Source of the DNA: a virus | Taxonomy: Duplodnaviria > Heunggongvirae > Uroviricota > Caudoviricetes | DNA: 9,032 nucleotides | Reading direction: 5' to 3' (one strand) | IMG/VR virus record: IMGVR_UViG_2693429599_000008 | In this document: positions 1 to 9,032 of the stretch, piece after piece | How the letters are laid out: each line of letters opens with the position of its first letter | Numbering within the stretch: position 1 is the stretch's first letter | Notes under the pieces: model-generated | The model's database searches: none | What the model was told of the DNA's origin: nothing | The model's input: the letters and a program-made list of their open reading frames with translations, nothing else | Made by a program: the position numbers and the translations under genes

Positions 1-981
1 TTACCATGAACTGCATGTATACTGACTTGTGTTCATGATTATATTAGGGTGGTTAAACTCAATAAAGTCACAAAAATGATTATAATTATGTAATGGTGTA
101 AAATTAAAATATTTCTTAACTCCTTTCCCCAAACCATCATAATATGGATGAGCATCTACTTTACTATGCATAAAAGAAAGTCCCTCAAGTAGAGCAGGAT
201 GATTACTACGGTTAACAATTATTGCACTATTTTCAATATTTACACTATCATTACGACGATCCACATGCATTGAAATTCCATCAGGAGCATATATTGTACC
301 AAGCTTACCTGTAAGTATCATATCCATATCAAGATAGATACACCCCTCCCCGAATGAAATACCGTGATTCTTTGTATTATATGTGCACCTGAATATTTCT
401 CCTGCTTTTAATAAGGCTAAATTTCTGAAGAAATCAAACCATGCATGATTTCTTTTCTTTGCATACATAGAAATCAAAGAATCCTGCGCCTTTGAAATTT
501 CCCTCAGCTCTTTCTCTAACAGATTCAACAAGTATTCATCTCTTTTGTCTTCAGTTCGTAACCTTTGTTCACATATAATATCATGATAAATATCTGATAG
601 TTTTCTGTCATACATACTGAAGTCAACATCTTCCCGATAGATTATCATTACATTTTCAAAATCTCGTTCCAATTTTGAAAAAGCAGTCTTTTGGTTGACT
701 GAAAAATCGCCATCAACAAAAATACCTATCATACGATCACTCTCTATCCTTGCCGCATTTGTGACATTATCTAAATAGGGATGCTGCTTAGTATTAACTA
801 TTGGAACCTCATCTTTCTTATATCGTTCAGGATTAGGTTCAAACCACTGAAAAAGAATAGGCGTTTTTTCATCAATGACCTTTAACTCATATTCCTTTCC
901 TGCAAAAGAAACCGTTTGACAGGGTGAACTCTGCACTATATTTACTGAGTTATGGAAAGTTGTCCTTATCGGTGAAAGCAT
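1..981 (-). CDS. nleB2: NleB-family type III secreted effector (arginine glycosyltransferase), 326 aa, full length
   Basis: Complete ORF with ATG at 979-981 and stop at 1-3. Translation shows family hallmarks: DxD motif in 'CIYLDMDMIL' (D218-M219-D220), 'VNRSNHPALL', and C-terminal 'YTCSSW'. Residue 252 is Ser ('IENSAII'), which I recall as the NleB2 state versus Gly in NleB1. Region is visibly AT-rich relative to the flanking phage DNA. Confidence 0.85.
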   Translation of the reverse strand: MLSPIRTTFHNSVNIVQSSPCQTVSFAGKEYELKVIDEKTPILFQWFEPNPERYKKDEVPIVNTKQHPYLDNVTNAARIESDRMIGIFVDGDFSVNQKTAFSKLERDFENVMIIYREDVDFSMYDRKLSDIYHDIICEQRLRTEDKRDEYLLNLLEKELREISKAQDSLISMYAKKRNHAWFDFFRNLALLKAGEIFRCTYNTKNHGISFGEGCIYLDMDMILTGKLGTIYAPDGISMHVDRRNDSVNIENSAIIVNRSNHPALLEGLSFMHSKVDAHPYYDGLGKGVKKYFNFTPLHNYNHFCDFIEFNHPNIIMNTSQYTCSSW

Positions 982-1111
982 TCGTCGTCCTGTTTATCCA
1001 TATTTTCTTCACAACTAACTCTTTAATCTATTAATTATATTGGCATACTCAACCACAAAACCTCCAGCAGTTTTGCCATCTTTGCTTTCCTAACAAACAT
1101 CACCATGGCAT

Positions 1112-1146
1112 GCCAACAAAAACCGGAGCCGGACTCCGGTTTTGTG
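1112..1146 (-). terminator. Rho-independent terminator downstream of small ORF X2
   Basis: Inverted repeat ccggag/ctccgg (1123-1128 / 1134-1139) flanked by an A-run on the plus strand, i.e. a T-run after the stem on the minus strand; lies just 3' of the ORF ending at 1158. Confidence 0.5.
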
Positions 1147-1157
1147 AAGCTGTCGGG

Positions 1158-1427
1158 TTACTTCATCCCGCCAATATTTTCCCACGTCCCGTCAGCACGC
1201 AGAATTTGCAGCGGTCTTACCACGCACTGTATCTGCTTTTTATCTGCATCCAGTATCACCACCTGCGTGATTACCCTGTCCTGCTCCGGAATAATGCCAT
1301 TCTCATCTGACTCCAGAATGTCTGCCGGTCCCAGACGCAGTTGTGCTGTAAGTAACTCCCCGTGTTCACGGTCATCATGCTTTCCGTACCCGCACAGACG
1401 CTGCATAAGTTTTTTTAGTACGTTCAT
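1158..1427 (-). CDS. Hypothetical small protein X2 (89 aa), paralog of X1
   Basis: ATG at 1425-1427 preceded by AGGAG (revcomp of ctcct at 1435-1439). Start sits 1 nt after the X1 stop (TGAcATG). Shares the pattern 'RLGPAxIxExxxNGxxP...ITxxxxLDxxD...Q.Q....LQ....DG.W' with X1. Confidence 0.5.
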   Translation of the reverse strand: MNVLKKLMQRLCGYGKHDDREHGELLTAQLRLGPADILESDENGIIPEQDRVITQVVILDADKKQIQCVVRPLQILRADGTWENIGGMK

Positions 1428-1428
1428 G

Positions 1429-1740
1429 TCATTCTCCTGTTCTGCCTGTATCACTGCCCACTTCATCCAGCCCCTTAACATCCTGCCACGGCCCGTCACC
1501 AAACCTGACCTGCAAATGCTGAAACAGCCCCTGAACCTGTGTGGCATCTTTGGGGTCAAGAAAGGTCAGTCCGGTGATGAGCGCACCATCTGTACCCGGG
1601 AACCAGCCATTGCTGTTTGTCTCAATAATGCTCGCCGGCCCCAGACGAAAACGGATTTGTGTCTCCCCCGGGTCGCCCTTCGGTCCCTGAGGTCCGGTTG
1701 CCGGACAATGCCGGTACGCCGCCCGGGTGAACCTGAGCAT
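1429..1740 (-). CDS. Hypothetical small protein X1 (103 aa from internal ATG), paralog of X2; 5' end overlaps the lom-like remnant
   Basis: Open frame 1429-1791; ATG at 1738-1740 with only a weak SD (GGGA). Homology to X2 is clear from 'RLGPA' onward. Whether it is translated from this ATG is uncertain. Confidence 0.4.
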   Translation of the reverse strand: MLRFTRAAYRHCPATGPQGPKGDPGETQIRFRLGPASIIETNSNGWFPGTDGALITGLTFLDPKDATQVQGLFQHLQVRFGDGPWQDVKGLDEVGSDTGRTGE

Positions 1741-1843
1741 ATCCCACGGAAAATGCACCGTGTCCGTTTTCAGCCTGTGCAGGAAAGGCAATTCCTGCCA
1801 GCAGGGTAGTAAACAATAATATCGTTGCGTATAAATGCCGCAT
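1622..1843 (-). pseudogene. lom-like (Ail/Lom/PagC/OmpX family) 5' remnant: signal peptide and first strand only
   Basis: ATG at 1841-1843 preceded by AAGAGGT. Translation 'MRHLYATILLFTTLLAGIAFPAQA|ENGHGAFSVGYAQ' resembles the Lom precursor N-terminus (signal peptide, then S-x-GY). After about 40-50 residues the frame runs into X1 out of frame and stops at 1622; no beta-barrel body is present. Confidence 0.5.
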
Positions 1844-7673: not shown

Positions 7674-7688
7674 AAGCGCCTCCGGCAA

Positions 7689-8243
7689 TCACTTTTCCGA
7701 TACAACACGGCGGGAAGAATCAGTAATCTGTCGAACAATATCCCGGTGCTTGTTCAGCTCCCGCAGCGCGGCGCAGACTCGCTCCCACTTCTGAACATCA
7801 CTTTTCGCCCTGCGCAGCGCCAGGTTTGCCCTGCGAAGGGACGGAAAAATCAGCTCATCTGCTTGCGTTTCGGTAAACGATGGCAACGGCTGCACAATGT
7901 CCGCCACAGTTTCTGTTTTAATTTCTTCCTGTGTTGCGGCTTCCCGGACTGGTAACGCAGCACCTGCTGGCTGAGGAAAGGCCTTACCATCACTTTCCGT
8001 TACCAGCGCGGCTTTCGGCTCTGCTGGTAAATTATCGCCCGGCATGCAGTAACGAAATTTACCGTTCTGATTAACGCGTGCCAGCCGCCCCGTTGCGGTT
8101 ACCACCGCCAGCGTGGAAGCAACCTTGCGAGTACTGACACCGAACTTACCCGCCAGTTCCTCACACGTTTTAGCCCCATCCTGACCGATAAACTCAATCA
8201 TCATGTCTGCGGTAACTTTTTGTTCGACCTCCCCGGTCAGCAT
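7689..8243 (-). CDS. Hypothetical protein (184 aa from ATG 8241-8243) with N-terminal winged-helix-like domain, Pro/Ala-rich linker and helical basic C-terminus
   Basis: ORF 7689-8288 begins at GTG with an anti-SD-like upstream sequence; the ATG at 8241-8243 has AGGA just upstream. 'TCEELAGKFGVSTRKVASTLAVVTATGRLARV' is HTH-like. No S24 peptidase motif, so not a CI-type repressor. Confidence 0.55.
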   Translation of the reverse strand: MLTGEVEQKVTADMMIEFIGQDGAKTCEELAGKFGVSTRKVASTLAVVTATGRLARVNQNGKFRYCMPGDNLPAEPKAALVTESDGKAFPQPAGAALPVREAATQEEIKTETVADIVQPLPSFTETQADELIFPSLRRANLALRRAKSDVQKWERVCAALRELNKHRDIVRQITDSSRRVVSEK

Positions 8244-8338
8244 ATCCTGTGCTTCAGATTTTACTGGCCGCTCTTCGGTTAACGTCACCTGGAGGCACCA
8301 GGCACCGCATCACAAAATTCATTGTTGAGGACGCGATA

Positions 8339-8527
8339 ATGGAAACGTTATTACCAAACGTTAATACGTCTGAAGGTTGTTTTGATATTGGTGTTCTGCT
8401 CAGTAACCGGGAGTTTACGGAAGATGCCATTAAGATGAGAAAATATGAACCTTATCTTCTCAATGATAATTCCATACTTTCCAGAATTGCCCTTCTTGAA
8501 CTTGGTATTATCGGAGAACAGCAGTGA
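8339..8527 (+). CDS. Hypothetical small protein (62 aa)
   Basis: ATG at 8339 with GAGGA 7 nt upstream (8327-8331); AT-rich; stop overlaps the next ORF start (GTGA). Confidence 0.35.
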   Translation: METLLPNVNTSEGCFDIGVLLSNREFTEDAIKMRKYEPYLLNDNSILSRIALLELGIIGEQQ

Positions 8528-8712
8528 CTTCAGCATTTGCACTGGTGATGACCGTTTTTCTTATAACGGGTGAGCCACAAAATGTGATTACCGGAATTTA
8601 TGACAGTAAGTCATCCTGCATTCAGGTAAGGGACGAACAAAAAATCCCCGGTGAATGCCTCCCGTTAAAAAAAGTATCGCTGAACCTGAATAACGAAATA
8701 CCGGCTGGATAA
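8524..8712 (+). CDS. Hypothetical small protein (62 aa) with hydrophobic N-terminus
   Basis: GTG start overlapping the preceding stop; 'SAFALVMTVFLITG' could be a TM segment or signal peptide; two Cys residues. Confidence 0.3.
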   Translation: MTSAFALVMTVFLITGEPQNVITGIYDSKSSCIQVRDEQKIPGECLPLKKVSLNLNNEIPAG

Positions 8713-8807
8713 CTCGCCAGCCATATTAACGCCATACCAACGGATTAAAAATGCCAGCAATGGCAGGGATTCGTTCACCCTGAAATCTGTAATGAGGTTA
8801 AAACAAA

Positions 8808-9032
8808 ATGAGTAAAGTCTTTATTTGCGCCGCCATTCCGGACGAACAGGCAATAAAGGAAGAAGGTGCCGTCGCTGTAGCCACTGCCATTGAAGCCGGT
8901 GATGAACGTCGCGCCCGCGCAAAATTTCACTGGCAATTCCTGGAACATAATCCGGCTGCTCAGGACTGCGCTTATAAATTTCTTGTCTGCGAGGATAAAC
9001 CCGGTATACCCCGCCCTGCCCTCGATTCCTGG
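8808..9032 (+). CDS. Hypothetical protein, 5' portion only (75 codons, runs off the window end)
   Basis: ATG at 8808-8810 with GAGG about 10 nt upstream (aatgaggttaaaacaaaATG); open to the window end: 'MSKVFICAAIPDEQAIKEEGAVAVATAIEAGDERRARAKFHWQFLEHNPAAQDCAYKFLVCEDKPGIPRPALDSW'. Not recognised. Confidence 0.45.
   Translation, partial: MSKVFICAAIPDEQAIKEEGAVAVATAIEAGDERRARAKFHWQFLEHNPAAQDCAYKFLVCEDKPGIPRPALDSW

Follow-up and report, generated by a model that had tools for sequence, protein, structure and literature searches.

The stretch of DNA analysed here, hereafter the window, comprises the 9,032 nucleotides (nt) of IMG/VR virus record IMGVR_UViG_2693429599_000008 (Caudoviricetes) and carries the remains of a lambdoid prophage. 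It holds the type III secretion system (T3SS) effector gene nleB2, remnants of tail genes, a lysis cassette with an intact holin and an intact endolysin of the signal-arrest-release (SAR) type, an esterase-derived fusion open reading frame (ORF), a hok/sok toxin-antitoxin locus, queH and several early-region genes (Table 1). The phage sense strand is the minus strand of the window, and the plus-strand genes dicB, DUF1482 and the exonuclease gene are part of the leftward early operon. An initial annotation, made from the sequence alone, had called the stretch a defective prophage, and mapping onto intact prophages at the level of single bases bears this out: the window is a defective (cryptic) lambdoid prophage, crossed by four deletion joints that we name D1 to D4.

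Table 1. Features and deletion joints of the window (aa, amino acids; positions are those of the window unless a comparator locus is named).
Feature	Position	Strand	Evidence and remarks
nleB2, T3SS effector arginine glycosyltransferase	1..981	-	Intact, 326 aa; Pfam SseK_NleB (PF24688) 601.9 bits, profile 1-317/317
Tail-fibre C-terminal-domain ORF	1158..1427	-	Intact, 89 aa; Pfam Phage_fiber_C 123 bits; 0 mismatches to B19374 gene
stf 3' fragment	1432..1701	-	Residues 348-437 of 437; tblastn 100%; Pfam Phage_fiber_C
Joint D1 (stf/lom)	1694-1702		Loses 1,579 bp relative to RM14723 (L010 2374-3952), most of stf and lom; imperfect ~8-9 bp microhomology
lom 5' fragment	1697..1843	-	Residues 1-49 of 207, out of frame past the joint; tblastn, ORF list
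J 3' fragment	1912..2430	-	Residues 987-1158 of 1158, receptor-binding domain; Pfam Ig_GpJ_C 135.5 bits; tblastn 100%
Joint D2 (Rz/J)	2427-2430		Loses 20,985 bp (L010 4689-25673); 4-bp microhomology TATC
Rz inner-membrane spanin, 5' fragment	2427..2629	-	67/155 codons; Pfam Phage_lysis, profile positions 2-42 of 126 only
Conserved ORF between R and Rz	2631..2744	-	37 aa; phrog_4493 E 5.5e-16; identical to WP_000675931.1 in intact relatives
Terminator-like hairpin between endolysin and Rz	2875-2843	-	-21.1 kcal/mol, z -4.06
SAR-type endolysin	2965..3498	-	Intact, 177 aa; Pfam Phage_lysozyme (PF00959) 84.9 bits; 100% identity to RM14723 lysozyme
Opposite-strand AT-rich ORF between holin and endolysin	3616..3930	+	104 aa from first ATG, annotated 90 aa from 3658; phrog_1853 E 3.5e-47
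Phage-21-type class II holin (pinholin family)	4186..4392	-	Intact, 68 aa; Pfam Phage_holin_2_1 (PF04971) 'Bacteriophage P21 holin S' 111.5 bits
Terminator-like hairpin with T-run, 56 nt before holin start	4474-4448	-	-13.2 kcal/mol, z -2.99
In-frame fusion ORF	4840..5847	-	335 aa; first 11 codons of a 92-aa nin-region gene plus residues 293-616 of a 616-aa SASA-family carbohydrate esterase
Joint D3	5815		Loses 4,547 bp (L010 29063-33609); 1-bp microhomology
Terminator-like hairpin after hok	5946-5929	-	-13.8 kcal/mol, z -4.74
hok/sok type I toxin-antitoxin	6015..6340	-	Hok 51 aa at 6015-6170 (extended ORF to 6227); hok leader/sok region 6165-6340
queH (epoxyqueuosine reductase)	6408..7094	-	Intact cargo; Pfam QueH 221.5 bits; 221 aa identical to WP_000150294.1
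DUF977 gene	7248..7688	-	Intact (annotated 141 aa from 7673); Pfam DUF977 97.4 bits; phrog_142 'Ren-like exclusion protein' E 5.3e-46
DUF1627 gene without its first ~59 codons	7689..8288	-	Residues 60-256 of the 256-aa F2_407_2_2 protein; Pfam DUF1627
Joint D4	8277-8281		Loses 4,453 bp relative to F2_407_2_2 (L001 16695-21147); 5-bp microhomology GGTTA
dicB (cell-division inhibitor)	8339..8527	+	Intact, 62 aa; Pfam DicB 129.5 bits
DUF1482 (ydfD-like) gene	8524..8712	+	Intact, 62 aa; Pfam DUF1482 56.4 bits; phrog_1092
Exonuclease (ydfE-like) gene, 5' end	8808..9032	+	823-aa gene; phrog_2082; tblastn residues 1-75; runs off window and source contig

Four joints in an otherwise collinear prophage

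The window was set against four comparators. RM14723 (NZ_CP027103.1; locus L010) carries a ~48-kb intact prophage between nleF/yodB and tRNA-Ser/mtfA, and B19374 (NZ_CP142915.1; L003) an intact prophage whose left end is as in RM14723. F2_407_2_2 (L001) is the best match for the segment from hok to DUF1627 and has a different integration site, on the potABCD side, while O145:H28 12E115 (NZ_AP024921.1; L002) carries a prophage remnant. By blastn, the window is collinear with the intact relatives, with order and orientation kept, except at the four joints. Positions 1-1702 and 1694-2430 match B19374 and RM14723 at 99.2-99.9% identity, positions 2427-5815 match RM14723 at 99.94% (2 mismatches in 3,389 nt), and positions 5928-8281 (hok-queH-DUF977-DUF1627) match F2_407_2_2 at 99.6%. 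Between hok and DUF977, RM14723 has an IS481 element and DUF551 genes, without queH; this difference between same-site and other-site prophages is normal lambdoid mosaicism. The lambdoid gene order (early-left / immunity / replication / nin-Q / lysis / packaging-head-tail / tail fibre / cargo) is shared with intact lambdoid prophages.

The size of each gap was obtained by setting the blastn coordinates against the annotation tables of the relatives, and the microhomologies were read from junction alignments. D2, the largest, removes Rz from nt 204 onward including Rz1, then PerC, YlcI, both terminase subunits, the portal, the protease, the decoration and capsid proteins, all tail genes, sodC, and residues 1-986 of J. 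With D3 went esterase residues 1-292, DUF3927, a TerB pseudogene, Q with the sequence that immediately follows it, RusA, DUF968, and the 92-aa gene except for 11 codons. D4 took the first 59 codons of DUF1627, a DnaC-like ATPase, an O-like helix-turn-helix replication protein, YdaT, a cro/cII-like regulator, the divergent repressor, DUF1391, ydfC and the position of DicF. None of the four joints carries an insertion sequence (IS) element, and all deletion endpoints lie within a gene or just upstream of one.

Presence and absence of the modules were scored by tblastn of 57 proteins of the intact relatives against the window (E<=1e-3). No match was obtained in the window for Q (two families), RusA, DUF968, both terminase subunits, portal, protease, capsid, decoration and head-tail joining proteins, the tail shaft and tip proteins Z to I, the repressor, the cro/cII-like regulator, YdaT or the replication proteins. 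The initial annotation had listed Q, terminase, portal, head and tail genes as missing; their absence holds in this search, except that fragments of J, lom and stf and the intact 89-aa Phage_fiber_C ORF remain of the tail genes. It had overlooked the loss of the immunity and replication region, together with the early promoters, in D4, which strengthens its conclusion.

Three NCBI assemblies contain this architecture. In the draft E. coli assembly GCA_001283785.1 (L004), a 219-kb contig ends with 9 kb that match the window at 100% identity; a contig of GCA_017117565.1 (L005) matches the whole window at 99.97% identity, and one of GCA_001277415.1 (L006) matches positions 2036-9032, also at 99.97%. 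All joints agree among the three, which lie 0-3 single-nucleotide polymorphisms (SNPs) apart over 9 kb (L005 and L006 with 2-3 SNPs relative to the window). The exact 335-aa protein created by D3 is furthermore present on 8 public contigs, including ENA-metagenome and Logan (SRA) contigs. Given that independent assemblies share all joints, we conclude that the architecture is not an assembly artefact. That the joints are chimeras of similar lambdoid prophages, created during short-read assembly, is a suspicion raised by the draft state of the sources, by the many similar prophages in each genome (a median of 4 and up to 37 matching places), and by the fact that the joints occur in no complete genome. 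Against it stand the same four joints in three independent NCBI assemblies separated by 0-3 SNPs, with the D3 fusion also on metagenome and SRA contigs; the position of the joints in unique sequence, where the 1-9 bp of shared bases fall far below assembler k-mer sizes; and a 219-kb contig that spans the element into the chromosome. We regard such an artefact as highly improbable.

Among 5,426 complete E. coli genomes, megablast with the whole window found no place covering >=80% of it, although several of these genomes have all parts of the window inside a single full-length prophage. Four 301-bp junction queries found neither a joint nor an intermediate carrying some of the joints, by which the deletions could have been put in order. 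The remnant is private to a small lineage, and its nle effector content points to an enteropathogenic (EPEC-type) E. coli as the source. A literature search on the three source assembly and whole-genome-shotgun accessions returned no paper.

The initial annotation had itself named what would overturn it, namely flanking sequence in which the missing modules lie just outside the window. The flanks hold other genes. On the left, the 5,161 bp that adjoin the window in L004 match B19374 at 99.75% identity in one alignment and carry nleC and tfa fragments, nleH and nleF, followed by the chromosomal genes yodB and zinT. On the right, L006 extends 1.6 kb further within the exonuclease gene of the leftward early operon. 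Host flanking sequence is thus reached on the left, at yodB/zinT as in B19374, while the int and tRNA-Ser side is on no source contig. Prophage DNA does extend beyond both ends of the window, which stops within the exonuclease gene on the right and at the nleB2 stop on the left, as would be expected of an intact or nearly intact prophage with Q, terminase, head and tail genes merely beyond the 9 kb. Every intact relative, however, has hok and the esterase on either side of Q, and Rz and J on either side of the packaging-head-tail block; both pairs are fused here, at 5815 and 2427-2430. Because the normal neighbours of the missing modules are directly joined inside the window, these modules are not merely outside it, and the left flank leads through effector genes into yodB/zinT while the right flank stays in the leftward early operon. 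The chance that the prophage is intact is, in our judgement, close to nil.

The lysis genes and their transcription

The lysis cassette retains its holin and endolysin and has lost its spanins. Rz keeps nt 1-203, followed by 13 out-of-frame codons. In the parent, Rz1, the outer-membrane spanin lipoprotein (lipobox VVSAC, Pro-rich), is encoded in the +1 frame inside Rz with its start at nt 221/236; as the window keeps only nt 1-203 of Rz, Rz1 is wholly deleted. The disruption of the spanin noticed at the outset is hence confirmed, with both spanin components lost. Spanin knockouts yield fragile spherical cells bounded by the outer membrane, and shaken cultures break unless divalent cations stabilise the outer membrane (Kongari et al., PMC6139136).

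For the holin, the Pfam cut-off is 26 bits and the match covers profile positions 1-63 of 64; it also matches phrog holin families and is 100% identical to the RM14723 holin. No in-frame ATG, GTG or TTG lies upstream of the 68-codon ORF or of its annotated 68-aa relatives, so that a dual-start motif is absent. With no upstream in-frame start, there is no longer antiholin form. The endolysin carries the catalytic motif E35-x8-D44-x5-T50, as read from its sequence, and its structural matches in the PDB are 7m5i, 3hde and 4zpu. Entry 3hde (E 1.6e-16), labelled only 'Lysozyme', we take to be the phage 21 endolysin; residues 9-24 of the protein (LSAAVLALIGAGASAP), rich in Gly and Ala, align with its N-terminal segment. 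This putative SAR segment has no cysteine, which suggests the non-disulfide-caged type. The labels pinholin and SAR endolysin given in the initial annotation are supported at the sequence level. The cassette resembles the phage 21 lysis system in its S21-family holin, in the E-x8-D-x5-T motif of its endolysin and in the parental Rz1 in the +1 frame of Rz (PMC6139136); unlike that system, it has no longer antiholin, has the 90-aa ORF between holin and endolysin and the 37-aa ORF between endolysin and Rz, and its spanin is non-functional.

The AT-rich ORF on the opposite strand between holin and endolysin had been described as a 104-aa insert. An insertion specific to this remnant was rejected: the ORF belongs to phrog_1853, is conserved in this lysis cassette family, and is present and identical in the relatives (L001 7232-7504, L002 12623-12895, L010 26905-27177). 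It has no Pfam match. Any read-through transcript of it would be antisense to the holin gene, and no clear plus-strand terminator was seen between 3930 and the holin. The 37-aa ORF is hydrophobic in its C-terminal half and is preceded by the strong hairpin at 2875-2843, inside the lysis operon.

The late promoter (pR') of lambdoid phages lies just downstream of Q and serves the lysis genes, which are transcribed by RNA polymerase that Q has modified. The Q protein of RM14723 is a PF03589 antiterminator, and a terminator-like hairpin (31027-31010) lies ~80-100 nt past its stop, all inside D3. In the parent, a consensus promoter scan of the sense strand past Q failed to locate the late promoter and gave only this hairpin at the expected terminator position; we place the promoter inside D3 because its canonical position is immediately downstream of Q. 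The region of repressor and cro with the early promoters lies in D4. Within the window, the same type of scan returned 13 matches where shuffled sequences gave 12.3, and thus offers no basis to name a promoter for the lysis genes. Given that the Q-dependent promoter is gone and that terminator-like hairpins stand upstream, the holin-endolysin pair is most likely silent. Q supplied in trans by another prophage should not rescue these genes, since the cis-acting Q loading site was lost with D3. The earlier remark that any lysis would depend on transcription from elsewhere is reasonable and probably understated, in view of these hairpins and of the lost loading site.

The state of the lysis genes bears on whether the host has domesticated them. 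In that case, the holin and endolysin, perhaps with dicB and the ydfD-like gene, would be kept under host control for regulated autolysis or release of cell contents, and the deletions would be the outcome of selection for a disarmed phage that retains its useful parts. It would account for a holin and endolysin that are fully intact amid the cuts, for deletions that hit each function in induction and propagation, and for a promoter-like match (9/12) on the sense strand at 4761-4733. However, the match is at chance level, with two hairpins between it and the holin; the same upstream 1.4 kb occurs in intact lysogens, where the lysis genes must be silent; and the spanin, whose loss would impair lysis (PMC6139136), is gone. 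Moreover, the lysis region is 99.94% identical in nt and 100% in protein to that of an intact prophage, which leaves too little time for purifying selection to show. Holin, endolysin, the 90-aa ORF, the 37-aa ORF and nleB2 are all 100% identical in protein to their intact-prophage counterparts. The identity of the lysis genes with those of an intact prophage shows that the deletions are recent, and it does not imply domestication; the genes have stayed intact because too little time has passed, and not through any demonstrable selection. We consider domestication very unlikely. Equally doubtful is the related notion that the holin and SAR endolysin have been captured by a host-responsive promoter in 4393-5928, or are read from the D3 fusion, as a spanin-less module for host-controlled autolysis or envelope remodelling in this EPEC lineage.

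Fusion, cargo and early-region genes

At D3, the fusion ORF takes its start codon from the 92-aa gene; it has lost the DUF1737 and SASA domains of the esterase and keeps DUF6645. The 335-aa 'DUF6645' protein is hence, for annotation purposes, a fusion made by deletion, without the esterase domain. At D4, the DUF1627 ORF now opens at a GTG 7 nt past the joint.

The hok/sok locus retains both its toxin ORF and its structured leader. Hok matches Pfam HOK_GEF (PF01848) at 79.3 bits and differs from RM14723 HokD in a single one of its 51 residues. Rfam RF01794 matches the hok leader/sok region over its full length (1-157) at 120.5 bits, against a gathering score of 59. The RF01794 match runs in the sense of the hok mRNA with the hok AUG at its 3' end, and so identifies the hok leader/sok target region (6165-6340), inside which Sok RNA would be transcribed from the opposite strand. 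The 70-aa ORF at 6015-6227 was rejected as mok, being merely an in-frame N-terminal extension of hok. An Rfam scan of the window at E<=0.1 gave, besides sok, only a sub-threshold isrK-like match at 5925-6006 on the minus strand (27.2 bits against a gathering score of 50, E 0.011). It coincides with the terminator hairpin of hok and was rejected as a small RNA (sRNA); it is most likely a chance or terminator match. A tRNA scan of the window found none.

The DUF977 protein may possibly keep a superinfection-exclusion function in the remnant. D4 ends 58-62 nt upstream of dicB and has removed the DicF sRNA gene, ydfC and the operon promoter. DicF was searched for in the window and not found; in RM14723 it scores 76.7 bits at L010 41545-41596, upstream of the right boundary of D4. 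The dicB and ydfD-like pair is thus intact but probably promoterless. The dicB allele shares 70% protein identity with that of RM14723 and 100% DNA identity with the dicB regions of other strains. The initial annotation had sorted the intact genes into cargo (nleB2, queH, hok/sok) and lysis genes; those are indeed intact, but so are DUF977, dicB, DUF1482, and the 90/104-aa, 37-aa and Phage_fiber_C ORFs.

At the left end, NleB2 is 100% identical in amino acids to the annotated WP_000950813.1 of B19374 and RM14723. A 45-bp direct repeat, 91% identical between its copies, lies at 1078-1122 of the window and at L004 9605-9649 (~570-615 bp left of position 1). The copies flank the segment of nleB2 and the nleC fragment, and adjoin a partial hypothetical gene and a fragment of a tail-fibre-assembly gene; the repeat is possibly the footprint of an effector cassette insertion 3' of the tail fibre genes. 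The alternation of AT-rich and GC-rich blocks, already remarked upon by eye, is confirmed by the GC content of single genes: 0.337 for nleB2, 0.384 for the 104-aa ORF, 0.376 for dicB and 0.429 for DUF1482, as against 0.50-0.575 for phage backbone genes, with queH intermediate (0.475). This alternation is the usual signature of cargo genes.

A lambdoid prophage probably fixed in place

The intact prophages of RM14723 and B19374 share with the remnant the chromosomal left flank, the effector cluster (nleF, nleH, nleC fragment, nleB2) and a collinear order, with tail fibre, J, lysis cassette and esterase at 99.2-99.94% identity; unlike it, they retain the ~31.6 kb missing from the window (immunity, replication, Q/RusA/DUF968, terminase through J, stf, lom). 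The cryptic prophages Qin, DLP12 and Rac of K-12 have no morphogenesis genes and keep a holin/lysozyme/Rz cassette, hokD, genes of the dicB-ydfD-ydfE type and tail-fibre fragments; Qin and DLP12 retain the Q homologues quuQ and quuD. Pfam DicB, DUF1482 and YdfE_N and the annotation 'rrrQ' are met here too. In contrast to Qin and DLP12, Q is absent here, the spanin pair is destroyed, and T3SS effector genes are carried.

The remnant of O145:H28 12E115, which lies beside tRNA-Ser/hya, offers a second comparison. There, too, lysis cassette and esterase (98.7%) are nearly joined to an N-terminally truncated J, and lom, tail fibre and effector genes follow J. However, its joint carries an IS3-family element, Rz is complete, and Q, tRNAs and nin genes are kept, whereas the joint in the window is IS-free, has 4 bp of microhomology and cuts Rz. 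The loss of packaging, head and tail genes in 12E115 is independent and convergent, and such block losses recur, as this IS3-family-associated loss of the packaging-to-J block shows. The deletion in 12E115 lies at L002 8362-11598, in a prophage that also carries tccP2 and espV.

In O157:H7 Sakai (Sp1-Sp18), most prophages are multiply defective, deletions included, and lambdoids carrying effectors are among them (Asadulghani et al. 2009, PMC2669165). All 11 of its lambdoid prophages have nonetheless kept Q together with a complete set of lysis genes (PMC2669165). The remnant is more decayed than these, without Q, spanin, immunity, replication or morphogenesis genes, and is less likely to be rescued by a helper. 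This bears on whether the element could be a phage satellite or a mobilisable island dependent on a helper. Defective O157 prophages are induced, packaged and transferred with the help of co-resident prophages (PMC2669165), and the right end beyond the contigs may keep int and xis. The window, however, lacks replication genes, the terminase small subunit and the stretch that separates lysis from head genes, which is the place of cos in lambdoid phages; Pfam, PHROGs and tblastn revealed in it neither genes for capsid redirection nor a packaging signal; and it contains nothing beyond a part of the gene set of a single ordinary lambdoid prophage. A satellite is hardly credible on this evidence.

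Taken together, these results make it very probable that the window represents the central part of a cryptic lambdoid prophage of an EPEC-type E. coli, reduced by four internal deletions from a phage of ~48 kb. Several points weigh against this. The segment hok-queH-DUF977-DUF1627 fits F2_407_2_2, at another site, better than RM14723, and no complete genome is the exact parent, so that D4 is sized on a relative and not on the true ancestor. The right end (the rest of the exonuclease gene, xis/int and the attachment site) is unseen, as each of the three source contigs stops within the exonuclease gene or close to it. Finally, the silence of the lysis genes is deduced from lost cis elements and from hairpin scans of the consensus type.

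In the parent of this cryptic prophage, an early region of the Rac/Qin type would have been combined with a lysis cassette like that of phage 21 and a head and tail like those of lambda, and T3SS effector genes would have followed the tail fibres. The remnant sits on the yodB/zinT side of the site that its intact relatives occupy between yodB and tRNA-Ser/mtfA, and the ~48 kb would have shrunk to an estimated total of roughly 15-17 kb through the removal of ~31.6 kb. The joints, with only 1-9 bp of microhomology, no IS and endpoints in or near genes, argue for RecA-independent illegitimate recombination as the probable mechanism, and not for modular phage mosaicism. By this account, D4 took out the immunity switch along with the early promoters and the genes for replication; D3 Q, the late-promoter region and nin genes; D2 the C-terminal part of Rz, all of Rz1, the genes for packaging, head and tail, and the larger part of J; and D1 stf and lom. 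From these losses, no induction, replication, packaging or late transcription of its own would be expected.

What survives falls into three groups. The first is self-contained cargo that likely brings the signals for its own expression (nleB2, hok/sok, queH and the opposite-strand 90-aa ORF). The second comprises genes that appear promoterless: dicB, the ydfD-like gene, DUF977, the DUF1627 fragment and the esterase fusion ORF. The third is the intact holin and SAR endolysin, expected to be silent; should the pair be expressed, incomplete lysis is predicted from the loss of the spanins.

This is ordinary prophage decay, with nothing mechanistically new. It is nevertheless a clean and well-resolved case of a lambdoid prophage carrying virulence genes and becoming fixed in place, in which annotations of holin and endolysin are not evidence of an inducible phage. 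By analogy with pools of defective prophages (PMC2669165), homologous recombination could still pass nleB2 and the genes around it from the remnant to lambdoid phages that enter the cell.

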